From the IMG/VR virus record IMGVR_UViG_3300002220_000624: a stretch of 25,563 nt of DNA. One strand, 5' to 3'. Positions 1 through 25,563 of the stretch are shown one piece after another. A program made the position numbers and the translations under genes. Origin of the DNA: an uncultured virus (IMG/VR IMGVR_UViG_3300002220_000624). Its lineage: Duplodnaviria > Heunggongvirae > Uroviricota > Caudoviricetes. The notes under the pieces were generated by a model. The model had not been told where the DNA came from and ran no database searches. It saw nothing but the letters and a program-made list of their open reading frames with translations. Position 1 is the first letter of the stretch. Each line of letters begins with the position of its first letter.

Positions 1-759
1 ACAGCAAAAGGAAATGTGCCATTTCAAATCTACCCAGGTTCAAGGGTTGTGCTAACTGGAACGCCAGTGTACGATAGCCAGAGAGATGCATGGCAGCTTA
101 ACATAAAGAGTTCCACAGAGGACATATCTGATACTGACAAGGCAATCAGGGTACTGAAAGAGGCTAAGGGAGTTGGTGATGTAAAGGCAAAGGAGATAGT
201 TGACAGCTTTTCAGTATCCGGTAATTCAGAAGGTATATTAGAAAGAATAGCAAAGAACCCAAGAATGCTATTGTCTGTACAGGGGATAAACAGTGAAACC
301 TCTGTTGAAGTTTATAACCATGTTTGCAACTTCTTAAAGAGCGATAGCGGTCTACAAAAGCTTTATGAATTAAATTTAACAAATCACCAAATAGGTAGAA
401 TACATGAATGCTTTAAGACATATTCATTAGATGTAATAAAAGCACGGTGTTTTGAGTTAACAAATCTTAACGGCATAGGCTTTTTGCTTGCGTCTAGAAT
501 AGCAGATGCAGTTGGTGTTCCAAAAAGTGATCCGAAAAGAATTGAGGCTTGTATATTATATTATGCAAATGAAGCAATGAACAACGGAAGTGTTTGTTTT
601 GATGGAATGGAGCTTATTAACACAGTTAATAAAATTCTTGGTGTTTCAACAAAAGCAATAGTTGATGTTTTTTCTAAGCTTGTTGAGGAAATGAAGATAG
701 CAGCATTAAACGGAAGATTTGATCCAACTGAATACTCTAATATTATTCCAAAGGAGTAG
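1..759 (+). CDS. RecD2/TraA-family helicase, N-terminal half (HhH domains); probably 5'-partial
   Basis: Frame is open from base 1, so the true start is probably upstream. HhH motifs KGVGDVKAKEIVDSF and LNGIGFLLASRIADAVGVPKSDPKRIEACILY match the RecD2 N-terminal pattern GIGF..AD.IA...G....DP.RI.A. No P-loop in this ORF. Confidence 0.85.
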   Translation, partial: TAKGNVPFQIYPGSRVVLTGTPVYDSQRDAWQLNIKSSTEDISDTDKAIRVLKEAKGVGDVKAKEIVDSFSVSGNSEGILERIAKNPRMLLSVQGINSETSVEVYNHVCNFLKSDSGLQKLYELNLTNHQIGRIHECFKTYSLDVIKARCFELTNLNGIGFLLASRIADAVGVPKSDPKRIEACILYYANEAMNNGSVCFDGMELINTVNKILGVSTKAIVDVFSKLVEEMKIAALNGRFDPTEYSNIIPKE

Positions 760-761
760 CG

Positions 762-1430
762 ATGGCATACGAAAACGAGACTATTATGGTTATCAACAAA
801 AGTGACGTAAATATTGACGATCTTGATATGTCGTTTAAGCCACGTAGCATGCACCGTATTGGCGAACCTTATAGAATCAGTGTTCTACAGCTTCTTGACT
901 CATGTTATTATACACAGAGATGTGACGATCTTGAGAATAATCCTGAGATTTTGCAGATAATACCATACTGTGTTATTGTAGCTCCTTCTGGATATATATT
1001 TTCATATAGCAGAGGGAAGGAGACATCCGAAGGCAGGCTAAAGAAACTAAAGAGCATAGGTCTTGGTGGCCATGTGAAAGAACAGCCTGGAAGTGGAAAA
1101 GGCAGGTTGATGATACTAAGAGACTCAATAATTCGCGAACTAAAAGAAGAAGTAGGACAAGACTATGAGCATGTACGATGCTTTCTTCCTTATTTTAGCG
1201 GATACATTTTTGATCCAAGTAATCAAGTTGGTAGAGTGCATTTGGGTATTTTGTTTGTAATACCATCTTCAAGAATGTTTGTTGTTGCAAAAGATTCAGA
1301 GATTGGAGTCCACATGACTCCATATTCATGGATCAACATTGACCACCTTGGAACAAATGAAGACATGAATACGTATGAAACATGGAGCGACATCGTAATT
1401 AAGAATAAAGAACTATTATTAAGGTTTTGA
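762..1430 (+). CDS. NUDIX-family hydrolase/phosphoesterase (YmaB/COG4112-like)
   Basis: QIIPY, Y.R....E.RL....SIGLGGH, the Nudix-box helix RELKEEVG, and VGRVHLG. GGAG SD at 753-756. Confidence 0.85.
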   Translation: MAYENETIMVINKSDVNIDDLDMSFKPRSMHRIGEPYRISVLQLLDSCYYTQRCDDLENNPEILQIIPYCVIVAPSGYIFSYSRGKETSEGRLKKLKSIGLGGHVKEQPGSGKGRLMILRDSIIRELKEEVGQDYEHVRCFLPYFSGYIFDPSNQVGRVHLGILFVIPSSRMFVVAKDSEIGVHMTPYSWINIDHLGTNEDMNTYETWSDIVIKNKELLLRF

Positions 1431-1431
1431 T

Positions 1432-2862
1432 ATGTTATATTACCTTCCAGAGTTCAGGGTAAAGGAAGAGGAAATTGGGTTTATGCTTGCTAGGCAGGCA
1501 TTATATCCATGTGACAAGATAGCTGCTATTAAACCTGGCGATATCAATGGAATCGCGAATGAACAAAGCAAGCTTGATGACAGGCAGATGGCTGCTGTAG
1601 AGAATGCATGTACAAATAATTTATCTATTTTGTGTGGTAGAGCTGGGACAGGGAAGACTACAACTTTGAAAGCGATAGCAAATTCTTTTATTGGTGCTGG
1701 AATGAATGGCATTGCTATGTGTCCAACTGGCAAGGCTGCAAAGAGATTTCAGGAAGTTGTGTGTTGTGGAGATAAAATTAACAGTGTCAATCTTCCGTCA
1801 AAAACAATAGCATCTGCACTCAGATATTACAATGGAAGATTTACGGTCGATGAAAATGACACATTAGATTATGATTTTGTGATCGTAGATGAAGCTTCAA
1901 TGTGCGGAGTCCATACGTTTAATGCACTACTAAGGGCAATAGATTGGAAAAGAACTAGGATTGTAATTACAGGAGATCATAATCAACTGCCAAGCATAGA
2001 GCCAGGTAACATATTAAATGACTTAATATCGTGTGGTGAATTTAAGTGCGAATCATTAACTAAGATCTACAGGCAAGATAAGAATAGTGGTATTGTTTAT
2101 AATGCATCGCGTGTCATTGATGGTGAGATGATATCAATCTCTCATCACGAATCAGGTGTTAGATTCGCAGACTGCGATTTTATAAAAACAGACAAAGAAT
2201 GCAGCAGGGATGCGATAATTAAGAAGGTTGTACAGCAGCTACCAGCAGATAATCTTGACCCAGTAAAGGACATACAAGTATTGTGTCCAGGCAAGAGAGG
2301 AGAAATTGGGACAGAAGAGTTGAATAAATCATTGCGTGCAGAATTGAATGTAAAAAAGAGAGTAAATTACATGGGCTTTATGGTTGGGGATAAAGTCATT
2401 AACAGAAAAAACAATTATGGCTTGTGTATAGTTAATGGTGATGTTGGATTTGTAAAAGACATAGGAAAGACTGGGATAACAGTTGACTTTGGCGAGGGAT
2501 CTGGTAGCGATGGAACTGGAATTGTTGAAATGAATTCAGAAGCTGCTGCTTCGCTAAAGCTTGCGTATGCATATACAGTTCATTCTTCTCAGGGCTCAGA
2601 ATTTAAATGCTGCGTCATACCTATATACTCTACACATTGGATGCTTTTATTTAGGAATTTATTGTATACAGCAATGACTAGACCAAGACAGAAACTAGTT
2701 CTGTATTATGACTTAAAATCAATGCATCATTGCATTAAAAATAATTCACAGTCAAATAGAGCAACAAATCTTGTTATGTTTATTAAGAAATACATTTCTT
2801 ATTTTGGTTCAAGGAAGGGGCCTATTGTCAATGAAACAGTTCAGGCCGATGCTTGCGATTGA
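1432..2862 (+). CDS. RecD2-family SF1B helicase, C-terminal motor half
   Basis: Walker A GRAGTGKTT, Walker B VDEASM, GDHNQLPSI, LTKIYRQ, GDKVI..KNN, NGDVG, AYAYTVHSSQGSEF, RNLLYTAMTR. Confidence 0.95.
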   Translation: MLYYLPEFRVKEEEIGFMLARQALYPCDKIAAIKPGDINGIANEQSKLDDRQMAAVENACTNNLSILCGRAGTGKTTTLKAIANSFIGAGMNGIAMCPTGKAAKRFQEVVCCGDKINSVNLPSKTIASALRYYNGRFTVDENDTLDYDFVIVDEASMCGVHTFNALLRAIDWKRTRIVITGDHNQLPSIEPGNILNDLISCGEFKCESLTKIYRQDKNSGIVYNASRVIDGEMISISHHESGVRFADCDFIKTDKECSRDAIIKKVVQQLPADNLDPVKDIQVLCPGKRGEIGTEELNKSLRAELNVKKRVNYMGFMVGDKVINRKNNYGLCIVNGDVGFVKDIGKTGITVDFGEGSGSDGTGIVEMNSEAAASLKLAYAYTVHSSQGSEFKCCVIPIYSTHWMLLFRNLLYTAMTRPRQKLVLYYDLKSMHHCIKNNSQSNRATNLVMFIKKYISYFGSRKGPIVNETVQADACD

Positions 2863-3748
2863 TTGTGATGATTTAGATAAGCTGATATATCCAGTTCTTG
2901 CTACGCCAAAGATAGATGGTATCAGGTGTATAGTTAAAGACGGGCTTGCTCTCAGCAGGAGCTTAAAGCCTATACAGAATAGGTATGTTAGTGATTGGAT
3001 ATCAAGAAACTGTCCATCTGGGTTTGATGGTGAGTTGTTTATAGATGGAGCTAATTTTAATGAAGTCAGTTCAGCCATTATGTCATTTGATGGAGAGCCA
3101 GACTTTGTGTATAAGGTTTTTGATATCATTAGCTTTAAGTATGGTTATTCACAAAGAGTAAATGCCTTAAAGGTTATGCAGGTTTCTTGTAGAGTTCAAA
3201 AGATATTGCCAGTTATAATAAGTACATCACAAGAACTCGAACAGTATTCAAAGTCATGCATCGCAGATGGATATGAAGGTGCAATAGCAAGAAGCCCAAA
3301 TGGTCCTTATAAGCAAGGAAGAAGCACTGTCAGAGAAGGATACATGATTAAGGTTAAGCCATTTATAGACAGTGACGCAGTTGTGTTGGGGTTTAAAGAG
3401 TTGATGCATAATGGGAATGAAGTATTTACAAATGAGCTTGGACTAAGCAAGCGGTCTTCTGCAAAAGATGGAAAGATTGCATCTGGAATGCTTGGTGCGT
3501 TCCACGTAAAGGACGTGCATACTGGCCTTGAGTTTGACATTGGCAGTGGATTAGATAATGAAACGCGAATTACAGTATGGAAAAATAGAGACAGATTCAT
3601 TGGTGCTATTATTAAGTATAAAAGTCAGGAGATTGGGTCTGTGAATAAACCACGTATACCAATCTTTCTTGGATTTAGATCTATTCCTGAAAATAACACT
3701 GTTAATTTTGAAAAAAAGGCTAAGAAGCACATAGAATTCAGGGGATGA
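2831..3748 (+). CDS. ATP-dependent DNA ligase, minimal Chlorella-virus (PBCV-1)-like type
   Basis: Motif I ATPKIDGIR, III DGEL, IIIa VFDI, IV EGAIAR, YKQGRS, V IKVK, VI PRIPIFLGFR. ATG 2831 (MKQFRPMLA) follows purine-rich AAGGAAGGGG and is preferred to the track start at 2771. Confidence 0.93.
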   Translation: MKQFRPMLAIDCDDLDKLIYPVLATPKIDGIRCIVKDGLALSRSLKPIQNRYVSDWISRNCPSGFDGELFIDGANFNEVSSAIMSFDGEPDFVYKVFDIISFKYGYSQRVNALKVMQVSCRVQKILPVIISTSQELEQYSKSCIADGYEGAIARSPNGPYKQGRSTVREGYMIKVKPFIDSDAVVLGFKELMHNGNEVFTNELGLSKRSSAKDGKIASGMLGAFHVKDVHTGLEFDIGSGLDNETRITVWKNRDRFIGAIIKYKSQEIGSVNKPRIPIFLGFRSIPENNTVNFEKKAKKHIEFRG

Positions 3749-3752
3749 CGCT

Positions 3753-6700
3753 ATGAGTGTTGATTTGGAGTTGCTTAAGAATGATATAGTTTCGTCAATT
3801 GATATCACGTCTTTTTATGAATCTAGTCTCAATGGCCAAAGGGCGCAGAAATTTGACTCTGATGGATGGTCAAATAAAATGCTATGCCCAATTCATGTTG
3901 ACGTAAATACTCCAAATTTTGCTTTTAACGTTAACACTGGTGGATTTAAATGTTTCTCTTGCGGTGCTGGCGGAAGCATTTTTGATTTTTGGCTCACCAT
4001 CAATGGATATAGCCCAAAAGATACTTCGTCTTTTATGTTTGCACTATCAGCGCTTGCAAGTGAAGCTGGGATAGACGTTGGTGAATGGAAGAAGACATCT
4101 GGTGCGTCACATGCAGAAAAGCGAAAGAAGATAGACAGAGTAATTGATAGTGCAAGTAAGCTAAATAAGGCAGAGTCTAATGATGCAACTAATGCACCAA
4201 TTGCAGATGCTGTTGTCCGTAGAATGTCAGATGCAATACAGCCAGATCATGTAAATTTTTTACTAGGTAAAAGAGGTCTCAAGAAGAAGACTATAGAAAA
4301 ATTTAGGCTTGGATATGATGATTCATGGATATACAAAGACGATTCTTCACAGAAGTGGTGTAGGGGTAGGATAACTATTCCTGTTTTCAATGTTACTGGA
4401 GAATGTAGGAATATTCGTGGATATACACATAAAGGCAGTCCAGCATACAAGATGGCCAATTATGTTGTAAATAAAGGCGAAATTGATGAAAAGTCTTATG
4501 GTTCACCACCAAGATTGTTTAATCTAGATAAAATGGTTTCAGAGAATTGGGAACATGTTGTGATCTGCGAAGGAGAATTCGATGCTATTCTCCTGTATCA
4601 AGAACTTAGAGGAATCGGACTTGACACATGGGGAACAGTTACTGGAACACATGGCGTTAAGACGTTTGAGCCGGAGTGGGTGAAATACTTTAAGGGTAGG
4701 CATGTTTATATTTGTTTTGACTGTGATGACGATGGAAAAATAGCTGCTCCATCCGTTGCAACTCAGCACTTTCTTCCTGGAATAAAATCTGGTGCATTCA
4801 AGTCAGTTAGAATCATAAAGCTTCCGCTTGATGGGTCGAAGGAATACAAAGACATTAGTGATTTCTTTTTGAAGGCTGAACTAACGATCAATGACTTCAT
4901 AGAACTATGCTCGAATGAGCCTCAACTTATTGTTGGCGGAGTTTCTGAAGATGAAGCATCAGTGGAGCCTATAGTTGTTGATAATCTTGTTGAAGCTATA
5001 CTAGATAAGAGATATATTGATAAAAAGATAAGAGTTCCGATCGCAATTTCCGGTGTTACATCGAGACTTTACCATGCTGTACGTGAGTATGAAATAGGGT
5101 ATTGTCCATGCAAAAAAGAATCAAGTCAAGACTCTTGTTGTCATGATGGCGTTGGTGCTACAAAGATCCCGTATGGGCATCCACTGTTTATACAGTGTTG
5201 CATGCAGCCAGAAGAAAAAACATTGAAATCAATTGCCCATACAGTATGTTCTAAGCATCAAAAGTGTGAAGTAAGGCCGATATCTAAGGTTGTAATGGAA
5301 GAGTATTATGCGCATCAGGTTTCCGATCGACTTAGGGCTGAAGAGGTAGACGGGCATCTCAGGAATACGCAAGAATTATTCACAATACCAGTTTATGTAC
5401 TGCAGCCTCCAGGTGGCATAGTAATTAAGCCGCAAAACTACACAGCCATTGCGTATGTAAGAACGCATCCAAATACTTCATTAACGTCATTGTTTATAGA
5501 GAGCCTTGAGCCACTAGAGGATGAGTGGAATAAGTTTGATTCAAAATCAAGGGAGAATGTAGAGATTCTTAAGAATCTTAAAGAAGGGTTCGACGTTGAT
5601 TCAATTGTTGAGCAATTAACTAATCATGTTACCAGAATCTACGAGTCGGATGAGATTTTGTATGCAACAATACTTTCTTTTTTAAGCCCAATACAATTTA
5701 TATTTAATAATGAACCAATACGAGGATGGCTTAATATAGCAATAATTGGTGACAGCGGAACAGGTAAGTCGGCAACGTATTCAAGGCTCTCCGACTGGAT
5801 TGGAATTGGTGATTTATTTTCTGCTTTATCTGGCACAAGAACTGGGCTCCTTTATGCAATGAGACAGAGGGGAAATGAGTGGCATATTGCTGTTGGTGCA
5901 TACGTCAGGGCGTCTGGAAAGATTATAGCAATAGATGAGACACAAGAAATGGAAGCAGATGAAATAAAAAAAATGGCTATTGCTATGGAGACAGGTTTTC
6001 TTAAGATAGAGAGGGTTGCGTCTGGTGGGTACCAGACAAGAACCAGAACAATATTTCTGCTAAACCCAAAGCACCAAAATGGGCAAGCTGCAACAATTTC
6101 TGAATTCATGTATGGCGCAGAGTGTTTGAGAAACTGCTTTGCATATATGTTTATAAGACGACTTGATTTGGCTGTATTTACAACTGGAAATAGCAAACAT
6201 GATTTCTATAACAAAATAACTACTCCAGTTTCCGAATTAAAATTAACACCGTTAATGATGAAAACGCTCGTATTTTGGTCGTGGACAAGAAAGCCTGAAA
6301 ATATAATTTGGAAACAATCTTCTGTAGAAGTATGTCTTAACGAAGCAACCAGATTGTCTGGTATATTTGGTTACGTTGACTTAATTCCATTGGTTTGTCC
6401 TCAGGATTTTAGGTTAAAATTAGCAAGGCTTTCTGTTGCATATTCAATATTGTCATGCAATTTTACCGATGATTTCCAGTCTGTGACAGTAGAGCCGGAT
6501 CACGTTAGAACTATGGCTGCACTCATTGAAGTTATTTATTCCTCAAACTCATGCGACTTAAATCAGTTGTCTGATTTACATAAATCTAAGTCAACGCTAG
6601 GTGACAGCTATCTTGAGATTAAGGCTTATTTTGAGTCGAGAGTTGTAAAAGACAGAAGTTCTGGAGATCCGGTTATAAGAGAAAGAATGCCATTTATTCA

Positions 6701-7654: not shown

Positions 7655-8418
7655 TTCAATTTAGTGGCGGTGACTATGAACTAATACATGCAATACCTCC
7701 ACTTAGTAGGTATGTTTCTTCATCTATAGTAAATGGGATATCTGTTGATTTTTTGTGTCCAAATATCAAGGTTATTGATAGAGTCTTATGTGAGTTCGTT
7801 GGATTTAATGCAATATACAAAAACGCAGATAGCATTGACGTAAATGGCTATTATTACACAAAGACTGTTGCTATTCATCTCAATGGTCCACCAGACTCTT
7901 TTTTACGAAGAGTGTGTAATACACTTGGGATAAGCTATATAGGCTGTGAAACGTTTCGAGATATCACTTTTAATAGCAGGCTTCTTTCTCAGATAAAGAA
8001 ATCAAGAAACAGTGCTGTGTTTAATATGTTGTCGTTTAACACTGTTGATTTCAATAAACACGATACGGATATCATAAGATGTATAGTGGTTTTTGAATCT
8101 CAGGTATATCCATGTATTATCTTTGGGACAAATAGTATACATTCAGTGACGCCGTTTGTGTTGACAGATATACATTCTATTATAACATTTGCATCTATGG
8201 CAAGATCTTATTTTGGGTCTGATGGTATAGTTGCTCAAATATGCGCTATGCTTGAAATACCATGTTACATTAAAAGGATGGATTCAAAAAAGTTGATTAA
8301 AACAAGCCTTGATAATGTTTTATATAAGGATGATTTTTGTGGCCATAACCAGCAACTGGAATTCATTGATAAATATTGGGATGTCCAGAATCATATCTTT
8401 AGATCCAAGCATCAATAA
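7639..8418 (+). CDS. putative divergent GT-B glycosyltransferase (GT9/heptosyltransferase-like)
   Basis: N-terminal MRTALVQFSGGD....AIPPL and C-terminal ARSYFGSDGIVAQICAMLEIP loosely match GT9 patterns (hhh....GD.....P; A..FIG.DSG..H.AAALG.P). The similarity is degenerate. Confidence 0.45.
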   Translation: MRTALVQFSGGDYELIHAIPPLSRYVSSSIVNGISVDFLCPNIKVIDRVLCEFVGFNAIYKNADSIDVNGYYYTKTVAIHLNGPPDSFLRRVCNTLGISYIGCETFRDITFNSRLLSQIKKSRNSAVFNMLSFNTVDFNKHDTDIIRCIVVFESQVYPCIIFGTNSIHSVTPFVLTDIHSIITFASMARSYFGSDGIVAQICAMLEIPCYIKRMDSKKLIKTSLDNVLYKDDFCGHNQQLEFIDKYWDVQNHIFRSKHQ

Positions 8419-8908: not shown

Positions 8909-9895
8909 ATGAGTGACAATCCGTGTGTATTTAAAAGAGAATGCAGAAAATGCAATCTCTGCAATAAAGATGACCGTCCAACTATGTGCAAGATGCTTGA
9001 GTGTGAGCATTACACGCCGTGCGCAAAGTGTGGAAGGAATATGCAATTAGACGACTCTAAGAAGTGCAGGGTTTGTAATAAAACTGGGTATGTTGAAAGC
9101 CTTGCATCAGGCAATGAGAGAATTTCAGTTAACACTGTTAACGCTGTTAGCAATAACGCAGATGCATTGCTTTCTGATATTATTGACAGCACAAGTAGAA
9201 GCGGAGTTGATAAGAGGTCTGCGACTGGAGACAAGAGAAGGACTGACGACTATAGAAAGATAAACATAACTGCGCCAGGCATTCCTCCACAGGAATATAA
9301 TGAGTCAGAGAGGAAATATTATATGGATCAATGGTCTAACTATTCAAACTACTACAGAGATCCTACGGTTTACCCATTGATTCATAATTTAATAATTCTT
9401 GAAGTTGAACTGAATTATATAACATTTACAATGATAGGGACTCGTGGAGAGTATCACGACAAGCTCATTAGGCACAGAACTGATTTGATTAAAAATATGA
9501 CTGCAATTAGGGATCAGTTGCCATCAGAAGAGTCTTTTGAACTCTCGGAAGACGAAAAAGCGCTTAGTATAATATATGAGACATACAAGAATGAGGTTGA
9601 AAAAAGATCGAAGGGAAAAATTAAAAGGCTATTTGATTTACCAACAATTGCGCTTGCTCCAAATCTGCATTTCAAGAAAGATCTTAGTGCAATCTTGAAA
9701 AAGCTAGGATATAAGCAGATTGATATTGATGAAGTCGTAAAGAGAATGAAGGATTATCCAGAAGACCCTTATGAGCTTGCATTGTTCCTTGGATTTCCAC
9801 TAGACGAAGAAGTTGTAGAAGAAAACGAAGATCAAGACAGTGGAGACATGGTAGAGGATAATGAATCAAATGAAGGCATTATATTTAGTGCATAA
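8909..9895 (+). CDS. Zn-finger protein, candidate terminase small subunit
   Basis: N-terminal CxxC clusters (CRKCNLC, CAKC, CRVC), helical core, acidic tail; immediately upstream of TerL. The TerS role is inferred from position only. Confidence 0.45.
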   Translation: MSDNPCVFKRECRKCNLCNKDDRPTMCKMLECEHYTPCAKCGRNMQLDDSKKCRVCNKTGYVESLASGNERISVNTVNAVSNNADALLSDIIDSTSRSGVDKRSATGDKRRTDDYRKINITAPGIPPQEYNESERKYYMDQWSNYSNYYRDPTVYPLIHNLIILEVELNYITFTMIGTRGEYHDKLIRHRTDLIKNMTAIRDQLPSEESFELSEDEKALSIIYETYKNEVEKRSKGKIKRLFDLPTIALAPNLHFKKDLSAILKKLGYKQIDIDEVVKRMKDYPEDPYELALFLGFPLDEEVVEENEDQDSGDMVEDNESNEGIIFSA

Positions 9896-9916: not shown

Positions 9917-11671
9917 ATGAGAGCAAGATGGAGGCTAGATCGTAAATTAACAGCTACGATGATTGACGATTTTATACATGACCCTGTATTAGCTGCTAAG
10001 GTCATTATAGGGTGGGATCTTCCACCACACCAGCAGATCAGGCTCATGGATATGTGGACTACTCACTTAACAATAGACGATTCAGGTTTTTCATCAGGAA
10101 AGACCGCAACGTTTGCTATAGCAATTGCGTTGCGGTCTATTTTGTTTTCTGAGAGAAAGACAGGGATAGTTTCTGGTACATTTAGGCAAAGCAAGATTAT
10201 ATTTGGATACTTTGATTCATGGTATAATAGCTCTCCAATTTTTAGGTACTGCCTTAAGCACGCAAGGGGTAAGCCAAAGATAACACACGGAACAGATGCA
10301 TGGGAAGCTCAGTATAGAGGAGATTCAATTGTTAGGGCGTTACCACCAGGATTTATTGGTGATTCAACAAAAGATAAATCAAGGCTAAGATCTGAGAGAT
10401 GGCACGATGGATATTTTGATGAATGGACTACATTTGATATAACTATTATGACGAGAACGCTGTTTGGTCGTGTAACAGCGTTAAATCGCAACCCAGACGA
10501 CCCAATAAGACAGAATCATATACACTTAGCTAGTACGCCAGGTTTCACTAGCTATCCTTCGTATGAAGTAATACGAAGCATTGATAAGAAAATTTCTATG
10601 GGTAGTAAAAATTATTCAAGATTTACAAGCAATTACAGACATGTTCCAAAAAGAAAGAAATGGGTTGGTTTTGTTGATTATAAGACAATTCACACAATGC
10701 AAACAACCAACCCAGAAGGGGTTGTAAAATCTGAAATCGACGGGGTATGGCAGTCAGATTCTCTTTCGTACTATTCGTACAATGGCATTTCTTCGTGCAG
10801 AATGAGTGGATGCCCTATAATGTTTAAAAGAAGAGATGCATCAGATATATATATCGCTGGATTTGATAGTGCAAGAGGCGGTGTTAGTAGGGAAAAGCAG
10901 GAGTCTGGAGAAGGTGATGATTTTTCTATTAGTGTAATAAGAATACCAGGTGGGTATGGAAAGAAGCAGCATGTTTTGACTATCAGAAAAAATAATGTAA
11001 CTTCACAACAGATGGCTGGAGTTGTTTATAGACTTAATGATGTATTTAATTTTAAGTACATAGTATATGATCCTGGTGGCGGTGGTGCATTTGTTGCAGA
11101 TGACCTTAAATCAGATTACCTAGTTGTTAATGACAAGAGGATTCAAATTATTCCGATAGTTGATCGCTTTGACTTTTCAATACCTGCATCTTATCATGTA
11201 CTAATTCCATTCAAAAGAGGATTTCAGTCAATAGACAAGACATTTGACAAAGTTGCTTCAGATAGCATAATAATCAATAAGCTTCACAAATACGTCTCTG
11301 GGCAAATTGCAAACAAAAAGATAGCACTTCAGGAAAAATGGAATGGATGGCCTGTGCATTACGGAGTGTCCAATCTTGGACAGATGAGAAAATTTCTTAA
11401 CGCATCATCAACGATACTTGAGAAGACAGAGCTTGCGTGCGCAGAAATGGACTTAGCTGCGCTGCAGTTAGTTTCAGTTGATGTCGCAAGAAAAAACGGT
11501 GCTGCTGTCATTGATTCTTATGGCATGTATAAGTTTACATCGAGATATAAGAAAGATTCTGCGTATGGACTTATATATGCAATGTGTGGCTGCTGTATAT
11601 ATGAAAAGGAGCTTGAGGAAGACAAGAGAGAGTCAACTGGTAAACTTGCGATATCTATGGGAGCATATTGA
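9917..11671 (+). CDS. terL: terminase large subunit
   Basis: LPPHQ adenine-binding motif, Walker A SGFSSGKT, Walker B YFDE, coupling motif ASTP, RNase-H-like nuclease IAGFDSARG...DDFS, YDPGGGG, KKDSAYGL. Confidence 0.9.
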   Translation: MRARWRLDRKLTATMIDDFIHDPVLAAKVIIGWDLPPHQQIRLMDMWTTHLTIDDSGFSSGKTATFAIAIALRSILFSERKTGIVSGTFRQSKIIFGYFDSWYNSSPIFRYCLKHARGKPKITHGTDAWEAQYRGDSIVRALPPGFIGDSTKDKSRLRSERWHDGYFDEWTTFDITIMTRTLFGRVTALNRNPDDPIRQNHIHLASTPGFTSYPSYEVIRSIDKKISMGSKNYSRFTSNYRHVPKRKKWVGFVDYKTIHTMQTTNPEGVVKSEIDGVWQSDSLSYYSYNGISSCRMSGCPIMFKRRDASDIYIAGFDSARGGVSREKQESGEGDDFSISVIRIPGGYGKKQHVLTIRKNNVTSQQMAGVVYRLNDVFNFKYIVYDPGGGGAFVADDLKSDYLVVNDKRIQIIPIVDRFDFSIPASYHVLIPFKRGFQSIDKTFDKVASDSIIINKLHKYVSGQIANKKIALQEKWNGWPVHYGVSNLGQMRKFLNASSTILEKTELACAEMDLAALQLVSVDVARKNGAAVIDSYGMYKFTSRYKKDSAYGLIYAMCGCCIYEKELEEDKRESTGKLAISMGAY

Positions 11672-13419: not shown

Positions 13420-15222
13420 TTGTTCAACTACGAAGATGCATTGCATGTACTTGGGTTGTCAGTAGAAAAGCCAATTGCTTCTGATATTTTTAGCTTAAAT
13501 ACGACATCACATAGCATCATGTCGCAAGAAGATGCTGCAAAAATGTTCCCAGAATTGGCAAATAGCTCAAACGCAAATGTTTGGTATGCTCCAGTTGTAA
13601 TGGCGCATTCATTGCCATCAAAAAACCAAAGGATGCGGTGCTTTACTGCAAAAACTCTAAAGCGGAGCGCTAACACTGTTAGGGATAATCTTGTAAACAT
13701 CGAGCATGAGTTAATTGAGAATGACATCGGATCAACAAACGATGCTGTTTGCGGTCACATTAAAAGCGTTTTTGTTAAGGACCAGTGCTTAGGTGGAGAT
13801 GCAGTAGCGTTGTATGCGCTTTCAGTTCTTTATTCCAGACACAGGAAAGCAAATAGGATTGCAAAGGAATTTGCAAACGGAGTCCCCTGGCGAGTGTCTA
13901 TGGAATGCGGACACAATGTTCTTGAGTCTGCATTTTTATATGAGGGTGATTTTATACCATTTAAAGATGCTCCTTCTGGCATGCTGCAGTGCATAAAGAG
14001 TGATACAGTTATTCCGTATCTAGGAAAAGAGCTTGCTTTTGTTCTTGGCGGTGAAGACGGAATGGTGAATTTCTGGGGTTTGGCACTGACTAAATGTCCG
14101 GCAGACAAGGACGCCAATGTTCTTGGTATGTTTACTGCTGCTCCGAAAGAAATAGCATCTACAAAAGGCTTTTTTCCAATACATGCTAATTTTTTTGGAG
14201 TTGATAGGAAAATTGAAAATTTTTCTGAAATTGCGACCGATAACTTATTAAAAGAGAGTGGAAGTATTTCTGTTATTTGTGTCACTTCTGAATCAGATGG
14301 CCATTACCACAAAGTTCTTTCAAATGGTGTTGTTGTTCCAGAAAATGGCCATAGCCATTTGATTTCCACTTTCATAATAAAACCAGGCAGTAAGCCGACA
14401 TTTACTGCTGTTTTAACAGAACATGCAGATAGGATTTCTGCTGAGCATAATGGGTATTCTTCAGATTACAGATATCATTCACATCTGATTGATGTTGATC
14501 TGAAAACTGAATATAAAGAAAAAAAGGGGATTTTAAGTGAAATGTCAAGCGCACAAGAATTGGAAGGTGATATGAGTAAAGTTGTTGATGCCCTTGCAAA
14601 AGCAGTATCCGATTTGAAAGAAATCGGATCTGTTTTGAAGGCTGGAAATCAGTCCAGCACTTCACAAGACGATCAAAGGATTGCAACTGCTGTTAAGGCG
14701 GTCGATGCAATTGTGAACCTGAATATTGACAAAGCAATTGCCAGTGCTGCTGAGGAAGAGATTGCGCAGAAAGTAAGTGCTGGAGAGTTTGTTTCAAAGA
14801 AGGATCACGAAGATAAGGTTAAGCAGGCAGTTGATACTGCGCTTGCAACTGAACGAGAAACTATCAAGATTGAGCAAGAGCGAGTCAATCGCTTGAATGC
14901 GAGACTCGATGCTGCAAAATCAATCGGAATTGATTTGTCGTTTGAGCCAAAGGAAGGCATTACTATCGAAAGCATAATTAAGGGGATTCCTCTTGATGAT
15001 GCAGGCGAAGAAGTTTTTCAGAATAATCTTGCAGTTTGGACAGCACTTGCCAAGAGTGCAAAGCCTGTCCAATCAGAAGCTGCGAGCATGGGCGCCAAGA
15101 CGCCTAAAACCATCCTCACAGTTGGATCTGGTAAAACCTCTAAGGAAGTTGCTGGATCTGGCAATGCTGCTACTGAAAGCGGCAAGCAAAAGTTTGGCAA
15201 GCACGCCTTGACTGTTGTTTAA
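13420..15222 (+). CDS. prohead maturation protease fused to scaffold
   Basis: Candidate catalytic His in VNIEHE, Ser in WRVSMEC, and F.GLAL...PAD motif typical of phage head proteases. C-terminal third is Ala/Glu/Lys-rich and coiled-coil-like. TTG start after AAGGA. Confidence 0.75.
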   Translation: MFNYEDALHVLGLSVEKPIASDIFSLNTTSHSIMSQEDAAKMFPELANSSNANVWYAPVVMAHSLPSKNQRMRCFTAKTLKRSANTVRDNLVNIEHELIENDIGSTNDAVCGHIKSVFVKDQCLGGDAVALYALSVLYSRHRKANRIAKEFANGVPWRVSMECGHNVLESAFLYEGDFIPFKDAPSGMLQCIKSDTVIPYLGKELAFVLGGEDGMVNFWGLALTKCPADKDANVLGMFTAAPKEIASTKGFFPIHANFFGVDRKIENFSEIATDNLLKESGSISVICVTSESDGHYHKVLSNGVVVPENGHSHLISTFIIKPGSKPTFTAVLTEHADRISAEHNGYSSDYRYHSHLIDVDLKTEYKEKKGILSEMSSAQELEGDMSKVVDALAKAVSDLKEIGSVLKAGNQSSTSQDDQRIATAVKAVDAIVNLNIDKAIASAAEEEIAQKVSAGEFVSKKDHEDKVKQAVDTALATERETIKIEQERVNRLNARLDAAKSIGIDLSFEPKEGITIESIIKGIPLDDAGEEVFQNNLAVWTALAKSAKPVQSEAASMGAKTPKTILTVGSGKTSKEVAGSGNAATESGKQKFGKHALTVV

Positions 15223-15273
15223 CTTAACACTGTTAATTTTATTTAGGAATCAAATCTAGTAGGAGAATAAAGC

Positions 15274-15855
15274 ATGTACGGTTCTAGTCGCTTCAAATTG
15301 GTTTTTGGTACATGGGAGCAGATTGGTTGGCTTACATTCAATCTCGCGCTCAGTGATTCAAACCCAGACGCCGGGCTTGTTCCTCGTGGAAAGGCTATGG
15401 GTATCAATGCGAACTTTACAAACCTGACTTATGCATCTGGTGCCGATTTTGGCGGATTCTTGATGCAGAAAGTTGACCAGTATGGGACTACTGGTGACGC
15501 AGGTTTCAGGAGATTCACTCTGTCATATCCTGACATTCCAGCGAAGAAAGGCTCCAAAGTTTCTATTATGGTGCCGGCTCCAAATTCAATCTTTGAATTT
15601 GAAGGGCCTGAGAATGCAGATGCAAGTGTTGCAAACCTTATAGTTACGAACGGTGCTTATGGAATCACTGCAGACACTCCTGCAGGAACACTTCTTACTG
15701 CTATAAATGGCTGTATTCAGGTTGCAGCTATTGGTGATACGGTTATCGCCAATGTTATCAACGCTGGATTGACGCCTGAGAACGATGATGAGATCCGTGT
15801 TCGAGTTCAGATGGTTGCTAAATATCTATTTTCAAGCGAAGATTATTACGCTTAA
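15274..15855 (+). CDS. head decoration/cement protein (putative)
   Basis: Small Gly/Ala/Thr-rich, beta-type ORF between scaffold and capsid genes; AGGAG SD. Confidence 0.55.
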   Translation: MYGSSRFKLVFGTWEQIGWLTFNLALSDSNPDAGLVPRGKAMGINANFTNLTYASGADFGGFLMQKVDQYGTTGDAGFRRFTLSYPDIPAKKGSKVSIMVPAPNSIFEFEGPENADASVANLIVTNGAYGITADTPAGTLLTAINGCIQVAAIGDTVIANVINAGLTPENDDEIRVRVQMVAKYLFSSEDYYA

Positions 15856-15882
15856 TACTGTAAACTTAATCTGGAGAAGCAG

Positions 15883-17166: not shown

Positions 17167-17462
17167 TGTCATGCTGTCCAGAAGATAGTAGTTTCAAGAT
17201 AGAAGGTAATGTTGAAGCAGTTCTTGAGTTTAGAGATGAAGAGTATTCTTTTAATGAACTAAAGGGATTTGCGAATAATGAAGAAATTGAAATTTGCGGA
17301 GTTTTTTATCAGCCTGGATTATTAGTGTTTAGAGGATTTTCTGGTGTATCAAGGTTTGGTGTAATAACAGGCACTGCATACTTTGATCTACAGAAAACTT
17401 CTTCTAAAAATTTAAAAGACTTTACAGTGTTAACTACTAAAATGAAGCACAAGGAACGATAA
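17166..17462 (+). CDS. hypothetical protein
   Basis: 98-aa ORF coupled to the capsid stop by a TAATG overlap. Confidence 0.65.
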   Translation: MSCCPEDSSFKIEGNVEAVLEFRDEEYSFNELKGFANNEEIEICGVFYQPGLLVFRGFSGVSRFGVITGTAYFDLQKTSSKNLKDFTVLTTKMKHKER

Positions 17463-18650: not shown

Positions 18651-18652
18651 CT

Positions 18653-18787: not shown

Positions 18788-18809
18788 TAGTCTATAAAGG
18801 AACTTATAT

Positions 18810-19565
18810 ATGCCGTTTGCAGACGCTTGCAAGCCAGGTTACTCTACTCGAAGAACAAAGACTAACAATGAAATTCTTGTCTACTATAACCTTGGCGTCG
18901 GAATGATTGACAAGGTTGCTGTAGCAAGGGATAACGGAGTATGCATTCCGCAGAAATTCGATCCTCAGGAGTGCTGTAACGATCCGATTAACGATAACTG
19001 TCAATGCCCTAGCGACTTTTGGGCTGCGACTGTTGTTCCGAAATTCAACAGAGGGCCTGGTGATGGGTCTATCCCAAAGCAGGCACCTCTGTTTTTTGCT
19101 GTTGAAGATTACGAAAATCCTACTGTTGCAGGCGATGTGTTCTGGCACGTATGCCTTCCGCCATGCGAAAATGACAAACTGATCTGCTTCGATCAGGGCG
19201 TTGTCCCAAATCCTGGAACGATTATTCGAGCGATTCCTCGAAAATTTAACCCTGTTAACCACTATGTTCTTCAGAGACCAGAAAATACGCTAACGCTTAA
19301 TGATTTGTTCGTATCTGATCGCGTTGGCCTTCAGCGCATTCGTGGGGTTCCTTGCACAATCATTGTCAAGGTCAATCCAGACGGAGCTGGTGCATTTCAG
19401 GAGATTCAGTACTACTGCAATGTTATGCTGAATCCTCGCCCAATGAATAGCGGTTCTGATGGAAATGCATCTATTGAAATCTCAATGGAGGGAACCTACT
19501 CTTTCTGTGCAATCTTCTCTGCGACACCGCCTGGCGGAGATGATGTTGTTGGCGTTCTTCCCTAG
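18810..19565 (+). CDS. major tail (tube) protein, putative, Cys-rich
   Basis: 251 aa upstream of the chaperone; C-terminal strands (IIVKV...QYYCNV...ASIEISMEG) fit a tube fold; capsid-like codon usage; AAGGA SD. Confidence 0.5.
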   Translation: MPFADACKPGYSTRRTKTNNEILVYYNLGVGMIDKVAVARDNGVCIPQKFDPQECCNDPINDNCQCPSDFWAATVVPKFNRGPGDGSIPKQAPLFFAVEDYENPTVAGDVFWHVCLPPCENDKLICFDQGVVPNPGTIIRAIPRKFNPVNHYVLQRPENTLTLNDLFVSDRVGLQRIRGVPCTIIVKVNPDGAGAFQEIQYYCNVMLNPRPMNSGSDGNASIEISMEGTYSFCAIFSATPPGGDDVVGVLP

Positions 19566-19581
19566 TGCATAGTATGCAAAA

Positions 19582-19611
19582 CTTTCCGTGCGAATGGATT
19601 CGCACGGAAAG
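19582..19611. promoter_or_regulatory. perfect 14-bp inverted repeat (stem-loop)
   Basis: CTTTCCGTGCGAAT-GG-ATTCGCACGGAAAG, abutting the GGAGG SD (19611-15) of the next gene; no U-tract on the + strand. Confidence 0.8.
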
Positions 19612-19620
19612 GAGGTTGTA

Positions 19621-20124
19621 ATGTCTAATCCTGTATGGACTGGGATCGAGTTAGAGGTTAAGCTATTTCGTGTAATAAATGAGATACCTTACTCTGTAGA
19701 TGGAATGCCTCAGGGCAGCTTAAATGGATATCGCTTTAATCCTCAATATGATACTCCACTATTAGAGTACTGCTTTTGGCAGTCTGCTTCAATATCTGCA
19801 TCAATCGAAACTGAGCAAGTGCAGGTTCCTGGCAGAAATTCAAAAAGGAACATTAGTGGTGGGTCTTCTTATACTTGCTCAATTTCTTCTTTTTATTGCG
19901 AAGCCAAGGAACTTGATGAAGGAATTGTATTTAATTCAAGGTTTCGCTACCATGTTGCAATAATTCACACCACATTTACATCTCAAAGGAATGTCTACCA
20001 AGAGCAGTGCGTGCTCTTTCTTGCTTCAGTGTCCAGTTTTAGGCTCAATGGAATAGAGAACGGAATCTCTTCATACGAAGTTGAATACAGCGCAGAAGAT
20101 TACCAAGTTTACACTGTTAATTGA
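19621..20124 (+). CDS. hypothetical tail protein, possibly a second tube-fold protein
   Basis: ATG 19621 with GGAGG SD, preferred over GTG 19588, which lies in the hairpin. QSASISASIETE..V.G.......G...Y and terminal YEVEYSAED resemble tube-like strands. Confidence 0.45.
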   Translation: MSNPVWTGIELEVKLFRVINEIPYSVDGMPQGSLNGYRFNPQYDTPLLEYCFWQSASISASIETEQVQVPGRNSKRNISGGSSYTCSISSFYCEAKELDEGIVFNSRFRYHVAIIHTTFTSQRNVYQEQCVLFLASVSSFRLNGIENGISSYEVEYSAEDYQVYTVN

Positions 20125-20145
20125 TTTACATGCAAGGAATTATTG

Positions 20146-22497: not shown

Positions 22498-23049
22498 ATG
22501 GGATTGATACCGTTTCACAATTTTGTTGAAGGTTCTCAGTTGGCTTTGCATGGTTGCTTAAAGCCTTTTTTTATTGATGGTGGAACATTTTTAATAAATG
22601 ATTATATGATTAAATTTCCTCCATGTAGGATTGTATTTAATATCCGAGAACTAGAGGATGATACTTCTTTTACATTCCCAATAATTGGAATACTAGGGAG
22701 TGGCGGATATGATACTGGCAGGGACTATAAATGCGAGCAATCTGGTCCAGTTTATTCTAGACCATCTTTTATTAGATATATTGAGTTAGGAAAGAGCGTT
22801 TATGTTAAAGTTAGAAAATCAGGTCTCATCACTGACGATGAGCTTAACAGTGTTAATTCTGCAAAATTCGCTGATAGGGCGTGGTCTTTATTGAATTTAT
22901 TTTTTAAGACTCAAAGCTCTGTTTTATCTGAGAACAAACTGAGGCTATTATCCTTTACTGATTTCCCAACAGATATGTCTAATGCGAATGAAACACTATT
23001 GTATGGAAGATTAAAGTTAATAGCCGAAACAACTTACAGGAAAGAATAG
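22498..23049 (+). CDS. putative tail terminator-like protein
   Basis: 183 aa following the gp10-like gene, with an FPII motif; mostly synteny. Confidence 0.35.
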   Translation: MGLIPFHNFVEGSQLALHGCLKPFFIDGGTFLINDYMIKFPPCRIVFNIRELEDDTSFTFPIIGILGSGGYDTGRDYKCEQSGPVYSRPSFIRYIELGKSVYVKVRKSGLITDDELNSVNSAKFADRAWSLLNLFFKTQSSVLSENKLRLLSFTDFPTDMSNANETLLYGRLKLIAETTYRKE

Positions 23050-23051
23050 AC

Positions 23052-25563
23052 ATGGCTGATGGCGAAGGTGGCGGTGGTGGACTGAGCAATGTTGATGTAA
23101 TCAGTACCAATGTACGCATAAACCTTGGCATAAGTGCCGGGCCTGCGCAAAATATTGATTCCATTACAACAAGCTTAGTTACATTACAAAAGACGCTTGC
23201 TAAATTGTCTTCTGGGAAGTACAAGATAGATATTGGAATCCCAAAGAAGTCAATGGACGCATTGCGCGCTATTGCGCCTTTGCTTGATAATGTTAAGAAT
23301 TTTAACTCTGAACTTGATAAGCTTGTTCGCAAGGCCAATAGTGTTGCTGGAAGAACAGCAATGGCGGCAGCAGATAGTAGAAATCCTGAGTTTCGCGCTA
23401 GGTCACGAGCAACTAGAGAGGCTTTTATTGACAAGGTTCGCGCTGATAGAGAGTCGAGAATCAGGAAGGCAGCAGAAGAAGCTTCTCCTCCTGCAAGAAG
23501 AGGCCCAAAAGTTTACACTAGCACTTCTAAAAAGCCTTCTGTTGAAGAAGCTGTCCAGGAAAGAAGAGTCCATGAGGCTAAAAGCCGCGCTGGTAAACTT
23601 GGTGCAGAAGCGAGGCGAGGCAAGCCGAAACCAGAAAAAATTATACTAACCAGCAAAGCTGCTCCTGTTGAGCAACATACGCCTGTTCAACAGCCAACAG
23701 GACCAAGGGAGTATATACCACAGCCAGATATAGAGATATCGCGCGGTCACTCAAGAGCAGCCGAATTACTCAGTCAGATGGATAGAAGGGCAGCAGCAGA
23801 GAAGCTAAGGCAGTCAATCGAAAAGGAGGGTAATAAGCCAGCAGGTCCACGAGGACCAATTACTGGCCAATATGGCCCAAATATTAGACAGTCATCTGGT
23901 AAGACACCAAACGAATCTTCTACTGATATACTTGAAGGCTACCGTTATGGCGCTGCGCCATTAGGGTCAACTCCTGCTGGAACAATGAGACCAGCATATA
24001 GCCAGAAAACTGTTGAACAAGAAGCTAATGAAATGAAGTCGAAGCTTCTGGTTCTAAAAGCAGAACAAGAGAGACTGAAAAGACTGAGGAGCAGTTTTGC
24101 CATCACTGCAACTAAGAGGAATAGGTATTGGAGTCAGCAGATAGGACTGTCTCCATATGGATCAGAATCCGGTATTGATGTAATCAAAAAACTAGGAATA
24201 CCAGAGCAGCAAAAGCAGACAATCATTAGAGAGCTTCAGAAGTTTTATCTTGATGTTAAGTCTAACATTGAGGAAATGAAAACAGTTAGTCAGCAAATAA
24301 AGGAACTAGAAGGTAAGGGGATAGCAACAAAAAGAAGGGTCGCGACAGAGCAGGCAGCGCCAGTGCTTCCTGGGACAGTTGTTGGGAAAGCAACTCCAGT
24401 CGGAACGGGGGCTGAGCTTGGCGATAGGGGTACTGCGCGCACATTAGGTCTTTCTCAATTTATTAGCCAAGCAAGAGCAGTCCGTGAACAGCTTAAGAGC
24501 ATCAAGAAGGCTGGAGCTGATGCCGATGTTGAAAAGATACTTAGGTTTGCAAAGGAATATAAGAATCAGCCAATTTTGATGCAGGCTGTAGAGAAAGCAA
24601 GAAACGATGCCATAAGAAGGACTTCTGTAATAAATACTGCTGAGCGTGAAATTGCGCAAAATCTTGGAAAAATCGAAGAACTTAAATCAGAGCCGCTCCA
24701 GTATACTGGGTTCGGTAAAAGAGAAATGAAGAAAAGGGATGATGCAAAACTTCAGGAAATGCTTAATAAGATGCTTATTAGGCGTGCTTATTTGTCAAAT
24801 GCACTCCTGCTGCGTGGAGATGCTGGAATAAAAGGAAAGGAGAGGGTTGCCCTGCTTTCAGAATACAGAAAGTATTTTTCGTCTAGAACTAGAGCTGGTG
24901 CCAGCACAGAGAGCCCTCTGTTAAAAATTGAACGAGAAATAGAAGCAAGAGAGGCTGCAGCCAACGCACCAGTTCGTGGTGTAGATATTGGATCTTCTAT
25001 ACCAAAAGAGAGACCAAGCAGTAGTTTTGTTGATTTGCATGACAAAAAGCTTGCAGAACTTGAAAGAGATAGGGTTGAGTTTAAGAAAAGATATGATGCA
25101 AGGATGGAGGTTCTCAAAAAACAAGTTGCATCTAAAAAACTTAAAGGAATCAGCTATACTGATGAAGGATTTTTAAGTGAGAGACACTTTACACCAAAAA
25201 TGAAATCGCTATGGGATAACATAGTAAGATTAGATGATGCAACAAAGAAATCTGCACCAAGAGCTGACCGTGATCGCGCTGAGATAGCAGCATGGGATAA
25301 GGCAAATGCTAAAATAGAAGAAGCAGTTAACACTGTTAATGAAGTAGAAAAAAAGGGTCGAAGAAGAAAGAGAACAACAGAATGGAAGGATATAATTACA
25401 GATACACCTACTACAACTGCTGCGCCAGTAAGAAAACCAAGAATAAGAATGACTGATGATGAAAGGAAAGCTAAGGCCAGAGAGAGAGCAAGGCGGTACA
25501 AAGAAAAGCACGCAACAAGCAAGCAAGATCCAGTTATACCTGTCGGCGGTGGCAGCCCAGGTA
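23052..25563 (+). CDS. very long virion protein, probable tape-measure N-terminal region (3'-partial)
   Basis: ATG 23052 (MADGEGGGGGLS...) after AGGAAAG. Read codon by codon, it has no stop in 837 codons to the window end. Ala/Lys/Arg/Glu-rich. Absent from the ORF track, presumably because it lacks a stop. Confidence 0.7.
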   Translation, partial: MADGEGGGGGLSNVDVISTNVRINLGISAGPAQNIDSITTSLVTLQKTLAKLSSGKYKIDIGIPKKSMDALRAIAPLLDNVKNFNSELDKLVRKANSVAGRTAMAAADSRNPEFRARSRATREAFIDKVRADRESRIRKAAEEASPPARRGPKVYTSTSKKPSVEEAVQERRVHEAKSRAGKLGAEARRGKPKPEKIILTSKAAPVEQHTPVQQPTGPREYIPQPDIEISRGHSRAAELLSQMDRRAAAEKLRQSIEKEGNKPAGPRGPITGQYGPNIRQSSGKTPNESSTDILEGYRYGAAPLGSTPAGTMRPAYSQKTVEQEANEMKSKLLVLKAEQERLKRLRSSFAITATKRNRYWSQQIGLSPYGSESGIDVIKKLGIPEQQKQTIIRELQKFYLDVKSNIEEMKTVSQQIKELEGKGIATKRRVATEQAAPVLPGTVVGKATPVGTGAELGDRGTARTLGLSQFISQARAVREQLKSIKKAGADADVEKILRFAKEYKNQPILMQAVEKARNDAIRRTSVINTAEREIAQNLGKIEELKSEPLQYTGFGKREMKKRDDAKLQEMLNKMLIRRAYLSNALLLRGDAGIKGKERVALLSEYRKYFSSRTRAGASTESPLLKIEREIEAREAAANAPVRGVDIGSSIPKERPSSSFVDLHDKKLAELERDRVEFKKRYDARMEVLKKQVASKKLKGISYTDEGFLSERHFTPKMKSLWDNIVRLDDATKKSAPRADRDRAEIAAWDKANAKIEEAVNTVNEVEKKGRRRKRTTEWKDIITDTPTTTAAPVRKPRIRMTDDERKAKARERARRYKEKHATSKQDPVIPVGGGSPG

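Follow-up and report, generated by a model that had tools for sequence, protein, structure and literature searches.

Cluster A mycobacteriophages carry dozens of stoperators per genome, asymmetric 13-bp sites that are oriented with transcription and enriched in short gene junctions. matS is a 13-bp palindrome with a 5-3-5 reading that occurs in many copies and is read by a dimer, and Noc, a ParB paralogue without a ParA partner, has many dispersed sites on the Bacillus subtilis chromosome. A report on plasmid RK2 describes KorB as a ParB-family sliding clamp that depends on cytidine triphosphate (CTP), with a palindromic operator, OB, of 13 bp that has TTT/AAA arms around a central C or G; a title in its reference list gives 12 KorB sites on RK2 (PMC11790492). 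Here we analyse a stretch of 25,563 nt from an uncultured tailed virus (IMG/VR IMGVR_UViG_3300002220_000624; Caudoviricetes), the whole of which we call the window. An earlier reading of its letters (the original prediction) had noticed an array of the 13-bp palindrome TTAACA(C/G)TGTTAA and proposed that a dimeric protein binds the copies and thereby organises, silences, partitions or protects the genome. That proposal is supported by inference from codon shuffles, geometry, half-site variants, centre bases and hairpin energies. The array is real, strongly non-random and family-wide, and, judged from sequence, it appears to be a co-evolving set of sites for a protein on duplex DNA.

We found 5 exact copies of the word in the window, 13 copies at one mismatch or fewer and 17 at two or fewer. 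The exact copies (9129, 13304, 15224, 22844 and 25327) and the eight one-mismatch copies (617, 1778, 3693, 6243, 8036, 17421, 19246 and 20108) all lie where the original prediction had placed them, and what it gave as at least four two-mismatch copies are exactly four (9138, 10472, 13670 and 15852). Its estimate of far fewer than 0.1 exact copies by chance also held: dinucleotide-preserving shuffles of the window (n = 100) had a mean of 0.00 exact copies and of 0.05 copies at one mismatch or fewer, the largest count being 1. The codon-preserving shuffle that it had called for left the excess standing. Synonymous-codon shuffles within genes (n = 500), in which the intergenic copy at 15224 stays fixed, gave means of 1.15 exact copies (maximum 3) and 2.26 copies at one mismatch or fewer (maximum 6), compared to the 5 and 13 observed. 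As had been claimed, the word is read in both of its permitted frames, with 12 of the 15 single-gene copies encoding x-N-(T/S)-V-N/K and the remaining 3 in the other open frame; in the third frame the palindrome would hold a stop codon. The peptide [LFIV]N[TS]V[NK] was seen 6 times in the window against 0.12 expected from amino-acid composition, indicating that the protein sequence too is bent to carry the DNA word. Thus codon choice, plus some amino-acid choices, serve the word. The copy at 15224 does sit between genes, and the copy at 15852 additionally overlaps a stop codon. The suspected tendency towards gene 3′ ends was borne out, with 6 of 17 copies falling between 100 nt before and 30 nt after a stop codon (background 12.3%, p = 0.013). 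The 13 copies at one mismatch or fewer are also more evenly spaced than random placement would give (coefficient of variation (CV) 0.41 versus 0.90 in the null), and only 30 of 20000 random placements were as even. The claim that selection acts on the DNA itself is supported by the enrichment over codon shuffles and with a palindrome geometry that is kept in relatives.

Relatives were fetched with an alignment of the window's primase-MCM protein, a 1090-aa fusion of a DnaG-type primase to an MCM-type helicase. Megablast of the window against cultured phages returned no match, and the best protein-level identity to cultured phages was 23%. Locus searches of viral and metagenome contigs with single proteins likewise gave no close relative, and only the alignment brought relatives up. 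In the databases, 96 relatives of the primase-MCM protein were found; the closest has 68% identity, and many are on contigs of 86-101 kb, the window's own contig measuring 87.6 kb. The window's own word was found at one mismatch or fewer in none of the first 6 relatives' loci. When we derived the relatives' words by an unbiased k-mer and palindrome scan, however, every family relative with enough DNA had a 13-bp palindrome of its own with the same 6-1-6 layout. The spelling was TTTCCA(C/G)TGGAAA in L001-L007, L010, L013, L004/L015 and L016 (GC 40-49%), TTTACA(C/G)TGTAAA in L008, L009, L011 and L012 (GC 33%) and TTTCCT(C/G)AGGAAA in L014 (GC 48.5%), while the window's TTAACA goes with a GC content of 39%. 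L001-L007 are 99.98-100% identical to G001 and were counted as one lineage. Exact copies of the respective word numbered 34 in G001 (86.4 kb), 26 in G002 (33.7 kb), 27 in G003 (61.8 kb) and 16 in G004 (41.7 kb). Reversing the word as a control gave 0 copies in each of the four. G001 is a complete genome of 86,403 bp with a 99-bp terminal repeat. At one mismatch or fewer it holds 89 sites, one per 970 bp, across both of its transcription blocks, and their spacing (CV 0.50 versus 0.98) was matched in evenness by 0 of 20000 random placements. The nearest accessible relative of the window is the TTTACA group (52.5% primase identity), and the TTTACA-half variants at window positions 17421 and 20108 link the window's spelling to this group. 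One short locus, L017 (5.6 kb, 34% identity), showed no array and is too short to count. Another, L018, the single locus returned from a genome collection, was dropped as a family relative because its 91.6-kb contig has only the primase gene in common with the family; this unrelated contig (L024-L028, G005 contig 15) contains a run of N and a CCTGCCTTGATGCC-type word, some 14-19 bases long, that is repeated about 15 times.

The element is thus an inverted repeat of two half-sites around a single centre base, 13 bp long and so within the 13-16 bp range of ParB/KorB-type sites. In the flanks of most lineages A is weakly preferred at -2, and the base favoured at -1 depends on the lineage, so the full site is about 17 bp. 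When orthologous proteins are aligned, several sites share a column even between lineages of just 40-50% identity, and most window sites are at positions not common to the relatives. One primase position reads V-S-S-G-K in L013 and L004, written with TCC AGT in agreement with the word of those two lineages, and I-S-S-G-K in L014, written with TCC TCA in agreement with the L014 word. Ser-Ser is kept while the serine codon family is switched and 3 nt are changed, so that the site here was converted in place by synonymous change. The P-loop FS[TS]GK of the terminase-like protein is written in the word's exact codons in G001, L010, L004 and L013; in the window the same P-loop reads FSSGK in other serine codons and has no site there. 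Site positions that coincide on conserved, word-compatible peptides such as this one need not all be ancestral. A substitution test on close relatives within the TTTACA group, from which two further comparisons with indels were left out, found 0 changes in 3 and 2 sites against 1.04 and 0.89 expected, numbers that agree with conservation but carry no power.

The variant sites in G001 bear on how the word is read. Besides the 34 exact copies there are 45 one-sided hybrids of TTTACA and TGGAAA halves, and 1 compensated double where independence predicts 6.9. A signal based on pairing within a strand would favour the compensated form, so the predominance of one-sided variants argues against a hairpin. 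The palindrome does allow a 5-bp stem with a 3-nt loop, and its enrichment at gene ends and junctions, along with the overlap of some G001 copies with start codons, would suit a hairpin in single-stranded DNA or RNA that serves as a processing, termination or priming signal. However, the predicted stabilities are weak (-0.9 to -3 kcal/mol), 3 of the 6 copies tested folded no better than shuffles, the would-be loop bases A-(C/G)-T are among the most conserved positions, and the palindrome has no Rfam match. Furthermore, the centre base of exact in-gene G001 sites, read on the sense strand, is C in 15 and G in 13 (hand tally) and so has no strand bias. We regard such a hairpin as highly improbable. 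The excess of one-sided over compensated variants, the unbiased centre and the weak hairpins point instead to a symmetric protein on duplex DNA. Which base stands in the centre of a hybrid goes with the variant half (G 34 versus C 11, hand count), and both orientations relative to transcription occur (21 versus 13, hand count). At four G001 junction sites, 25191, 60763, 9919 and 11814 (L020:5191, L022:763, L019:9919 and L019:11814), the GTG or ATG start of the next gene lies in the centre of the site, 6 nt past AGGAG.

In the window itself, family scans of its open reading frames (ORFs) recognised no cognate protein, as the original prediction had stated, and matching two of its unassigned ORFs against a structure atlas pointed to no DNA binder. 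Its advice to look farther afield for helix-turn-helix (HTH), ribbon-helix-helix, ParB-like or MatP-like genes was followed in the relatives and turned up a ParB-family gene. We annotated G001 with Pfam on 105 of its 109 called ORFs (4 boundary-spanning ORFs were omitted) and with PHROGs on 103. A 458-aa protein, encoded at L019:14959-16332, matched the ParB HTH (PF17762, E = 2e-16), and the recognisable DNA-binding proteins were this one, an adjoining sigma-70-type factor, a tyrosine integrase and a cold-shock-domain protein. Sigma factor and integrase aside, the ParB-family protein was the sole sequence-specific DNA binder to be recognised. A profile of 5 aligned ParB orthologs matched solved ParB/Noc/Spo0J chains over the N-terminal nucleoside triphosphate (NTP) domain and the HTH with E of about 1e-21. 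The NTP pocket of the orthologs keeps box I, N-x-R, and an ENxxR-like motif at box III. ParB and sigma-factor orthologs are syntenic in 5 of the 5 lineages for which the upstream flank is available, and in 3 of the 5 the ParB start codon is preceded by a site at a distance of 27-68 bp. In G001, 2.3 kb separate the end of the ParB gene from the downstream gene for the N-terminal part of a RecD2-like helicase (RecD2-N). The window begins inside RecD2-N, which explains why it lacks the cognate protein, and by synteny the ParB gene of the window's genome should lie just left of base 1. In the same annotation of G001 no ParA, CbiA or AAA_31 was found, so the phage ParB appears to be without a partner and the arrangement is not a classical ParABS system. 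Orc1/Cdc6, MatP, a classical repressor and a DNA polymerase were not recognised there either. G001 does encode primase-MCM, a RecD2-like helicase, an SNF2 helicase, nucleases, the sigma factor and the tyrosine integrase, yet no recognised DNA polymerase.

From this we propose, as a somewhat probable reading, that the palindromes form a lattice of loading sites for a partner-less ParB-type protein of the phage. They would be duplex docking, or nucleation, sites for a phage-encoded symmetric dimer, most likely a member of the ParB family that combines an NTP-binding domain at its N-terminus with a ParB HTH and a charged tail, and whose gene adjoins the sigma-factor gene just upstream of the replication module. 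Each lineage would use its own 13-bp core spelling inside a 6-1-6 palindrome of about 17 bp, and such lineage-specific spelling suggests that site and reader co-evolve. An even pitch of about 1-2 kb would be kept over the whole chromosome, with sites fitted into genes through the choice of codons, here and there of amino acids too, and squeezed into small gaps. By analogy with KorB-OB and ParB-parS, ParB would act as an NTP-gated clamp that is loaded at each site and then slides or spreads, and a 1-kb loading lattice would keep the entire phage genome covered. Coating of this kind might provide genome-wide transcriptional control, compaction or protection. We infer that ParB is the reader, that the window's genome encodes it and what the coating is for. 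A bolder version, which is possible but doubtful, is that a genome-wide lattice at a pitch of about 1 kb lets a partner-less ParB-type NTP clamp coat or condense the whole viral chromosome into a shell-less self-compartment, for global transcription control or as a shield against host nucleases or silencers. The lineage spelling would then be a private code against co-infecting relatives.

Several observations weigh against ParB as the reader of an evenly loaded lattice. Protein searches did not recover a ParB ortholog from the window's own genome. In place of GERRxRA, box II of the orthologs has G-F-x-R-x-x-A, where the Glu and two Arg residues are lost or variable, so the clamp chemistry may differ. 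ParB is among the fastest-evolving proteins of the module (27-35% identity versus 41-53% for the primase), and its recognition helix differs among four lineages that have an identical TTTCCA word. The window's half-site TTAACA is less like known ParB-family half-sites than those of its relatives, sharing with them only a TT..C. skeleton. A second conserved candidate reader exists, the C-terminal winged helix of primase-MCM. Because the ParB recognition helix varies within the TTTCCA group, there is no clean residue-to-base co-variation for ParB, and the same comparison for the primase-MCM winged helix, which varies within that group as well, gave no usable signal. A tblastn search of the ParB protein against cultured phages returned 2 weak matches; L029, an unrelated phage with a ParB-like gene, has 2-3 parS-like copies in 36 kb and no array, so that a ParB gene alone does not imply tiling. 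L030, a distant phage with primase-MCM, has neither ParB nor an array. Finally, the placement of the hybrids runs counter to the proposal. In G001, 31 of 79 sites fall in the 7.9% of positions outside genes, in short gene junctions, and the hybrids are preferentially intergenic (25 of 45, versus 6 of 34 exact sites; p = 0.001), many of them directly adjoining the upstream stop codon. The window's two sites with a TTTACA half are likewise at gene ends. If gaps were simply the cheapest locations, perfect sites and not hybrids should be placed there, and the proposed lattice does not explain the pattern.

Some of these points would suit a different phage protein. Another, unrecognised DNA-binding dimer, for example a stoperator-like repressor that silences the genome, could read the sites with ParB as a bystander. 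About 80% of G001 ORFs have no family assignment, the ParB recognition helix does not track the word, the crowding of sites in short junctions recalls that of stoperators, and the G001 tyrosine integrase makes lysogeny possible. Nevertheless, family scans of the window and G001 detected no other HTH, ribbon-helix-helix or winged-helix protein, the sites are symmetric and follow no orientation rule relative to transcription, and the half-site resembles ParB-family half-sites, leaving this alternative unlikely. The resemblance is clearest in the relatives: the Noc site NBS shares TTTCC, and parS shares TTTC, with their half-site xTTTCCA (PMC7383237). A reader from the host, either a nucleoid-associated or a partition-type protein, with spellings that reflect different hosts, would account for a word that is identical in lineages with proteins only 40-50% identical, since a conserved phage reader would then not be required, and for a spelling that tracks GC content (TTTACA 33%, TTAACA 39%, TTTCC 43-49%). 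The sites, however, have neither the chromosomal parS sequence nor its even-length layout, and the syntenic phage ParB gene would be left with no other evident role; we consider a host reader quite improbable.

The remaining alternative draws on archaeal replication origins, where origin recognition boxes (ORBs) and Orc1 direct MCM. In this scheme the palindromes would be replication elements read by the primase-MCM C-terminal winged helix, either for helicase loading or for priming or pausing at Okazaki-fragment pitch. The relatives' TTTCCA(C/G)TGGAAA, for example at L019:14308-14320, matches the dyad core of the archaeal ORB in every letter (PMC4153887, PMC12890983). The fusion of MCM-type helicase and DnaG-type primase, with its conserved C-terminal winged helix, is encoded by all family members. 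In G001 neither a separate initiator nor a DNA polymerase was recognised, and lagging-strand events would fit a pitch of about 1 kb together with palindromy, by which both strands carry the word. If it were true, an ORB-identical word read by a phage MCM module would mean a bacterial virus with archaeal-style origin boxes at Okazaki-fragment pitch. Arguing against it, no Orc1/Cdc6 gene was found, the sigma-70-type factor indicates a bacterial host, and the phage sites lack the G-string that completes an ORB (4 of 79 sites have GGGG no farther than 14 nt away, versus 3.3% of random positions). The sites are spread out instead of gathering at a single origin, the word of the window does not resemble the ORB, the recognition helix of the winged helix also varies within the TTTCCA group, and the lack of an array in L030 adds weak evidence. 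In addition, a separate non-coding hub of 1.8 kb in G001 has more the look of an origin. We rate replication elements as rather unlikely. The idea of an archaeal virus, which the ORB match had also raised, was rejected because of the sigma-70 factor, the AGGAG-type ribosome sites and the lack of Orc1. The hub (L019:4381-6211), a candidate origin or control region, lies between divergent gene blocks and contains inverted repeats (GTCAGTCA..TGACTGAC-like and TAGACAACTTGTCT-like) in several copies, together with three of the 13-bp sites inside a span of 460 bp.

ParB-family clamps are already familiar in the partition of chromosomes and plasmids, in Noc and in KorB with its 12 RK2 operators. If the ParB lattice is real, what would be new is a tailed-phage family that spends coding capacity on a ParB-type site every 1-2 kb and has a partner-less ParB, with a word re-spelled in each lineage and held at some positions by synonymous serine-codon switches. 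This would point to coating of a whole genome and not to partition at a centromere. The four natural spellings would offer a ready series for the evolution of specificity in the ParB fold, and the word is a simple sequence signature with which to sort these uncultured phages. We found no description of such palindrome arrays in phages in the open-access literature that was searched, and the word stem 'palindrom' does not occur in the accessible part of a 2025 survey of ParB folds that includes phages.

Within the window, the sites run through genes of very different kinds. The first, a one-mismatch copy (TTAACACAGTTAA) at 617..629, reads INTVN in the RecD2-like helicase N-terminal gene (1-759); the second, at 1778..1790, also with one mismatch, reads INSVN in the core gene (1432-2862). 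Further one-mismatch copies lie at 3693..3705, 43 nt ahead of the stop of the ATP-dependent DNA ligase gene (2771-3748), at 6243..6255 in the primase-MCM helicase gene (3753-7025), there in the other open frame as LTPLM, and at 8036..8048 in ORF 7639-8418. An exact site at 9129-9141 and an overlapping two-mismatch copy at 9138-9150 together occupy 9129..9150 in ORF 8909-9895. A weak site with two mismatches at 10472..10484 is in ORF 9917-11671 (terminase-like, P-loop), and an exact site at 13304..13316 is 88 nt ahead of the stop of ORF 11668-13404, which is portal-like via its G001 ortholog. The weak two-mismatch site at 13670..13682 has its outer pair altered on both sides (CTAACA..TGTTAG). 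The intergenic exact site, 15224..15236, begins 1 base past the stop of ORF 13420-15222 and is 38 nt ahead of the start at 15274, and the weak two-mismatch site at 15852..15864 overlaps the stop codon of ORF 15274-15855. Two one-mismatch sites have the relatives' half-site TTTACA as their left half, that at 17421..17433, 29 nt ahead of the stop of ORF 17166-17462, and that at 20108..20120, 4 nt ahead of the stop of ORF 19588-20124. Between them, a one-mismatch site at 19246..19258 is in ORF 18810-19565. The last two are exact, at 22844..22856 in ORF 22498-23049 and at 25327..25339 in a long ORF (23052-25562) that is open at the window end and syntenic with the G001 tape-measure gene. A public DNA run, X2, contains a relative about 1% diverged from the window (184 differences in the covered parts of window 500-20499). 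Its study and habitat label are not those of the probable source run, so the window's lineage recurs elsewhere. No RNA run was listed as containing the lineage. We inspected 40 of the 184 differences and found 0 in 11 strong sites, a comparison of low power. This relative differs at 13672, inside the two-mismatch copy at 13670, which may therefore be drifting.

All substantial ORFs of the window are on the + strand. Its left part is a replication module with a split RecD2-like helicase, the ATP-dependent ligase, primase-MCM and a RuvC-like resolvase. By family matches, + strand ORF 1-759 is the N-terminal HHH/OB part of the RecD2-like helicase and + strand ORF 1432-2862 its core, and between them + strand ORF 762-1430 encodes 222 aa matching phrog_8902. 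The split is also kept in G001 and other relatives. The C-terminus of primase-MCM (window 6700-7025) has, at about residues 990-1050 of the window protein, a conserved winged-helix-like segment whose wing, ..T[RK]KFNLF.., is invariant across lineages, and an acidic D-P-F tail. The right part of the window has almost no family matches and is, by synteny with the complete relative, a packaging, head and tail module. ORF 7639-8418 (259 aa) has a glycosyltransferase-family-9-like fold (Atlas structure match, TM 0.70), and no G001 ortholog of it was found. Upstream genes of G001 match nucleoside 2-deoxyribosyltransferase-like (DUF1937), dNMP-kinase and thymidylate-synthase-like families. Together with the glycosyltransferase-like ORF, these nucleotide-metabolism genes may indicate modified DNA.

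Set beside the systems described at the outset, the phage array has features of several. The original prediction had pointed to matS and to the stoperators. For matS the geometry stands as a likeness; the sequences are unrelated, no MatP family match was found in the window or G001, and matS is confined to one chromosomal macrodomain whereas the phage sites span the whole G001 genome. Stoperators resemble the array in being 13 bp long, in numbering dozens of copies across a phage genome and in lying, many of them, in short co-directional gene gaps. The analogy fails, however, on symmetry and orientation, the phage sites being palindromic and orientation-free, as the hybrid orientations and centre bases counted above attest. 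The likeness to the ORB consists in the relatives' 13-mer, identical to its dyad core, and in an MCM-type helicase encoded in the same genomes. By contrast, 4 of the 13 positions of the window's core do not agree with the ORB, and the phages have no G-string or Orc1/Cdc6 gene, a bacterial-type sigma factor and dispersed sites. ParB-parS and Noc-NBS give the best sequence matches of the phage ParB. Unlike the phage sites with their odd centre base, parS and NBS are even-length palindromes of 16 bp. The window's half-site TTAACA is further from both, the density of phage sites is orders of magnitude higher, and the residue equivalent to ParB 201 is Ser in all 5 phage orthologs but Gly in ParB and Arg in Noc. 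KorB-OB on the IncP-1 plasmid RK2 is, by analogy, the closest known system. The two differ in density (about one site per 1-2 kb in the phages, with 89 in 86 kb in G001, versus 12 on RK2) and in placement, the phage sites being mostly in genes and evenly spaced and not at promoters. They differ also in that no ParA/IncC or KorA partner was found, in that the element is a tailed phage, in the G-F-x-R-x-x-A box II of the phage ParB and in the match of its profile to KorB, which is weak (E = 8e-7) beside that to chromosomal ParB/Noc (about 1e-21). What they have in common is a 13-bp 6-1-6 palindrome with TTT...AAA arms and a central C/G, dispersed in many copies over a mobile genome, and a ParB-family protein with an N-terminal NTP domain and HTH encoded on the same element, which on the phage side is seen in the relatives.

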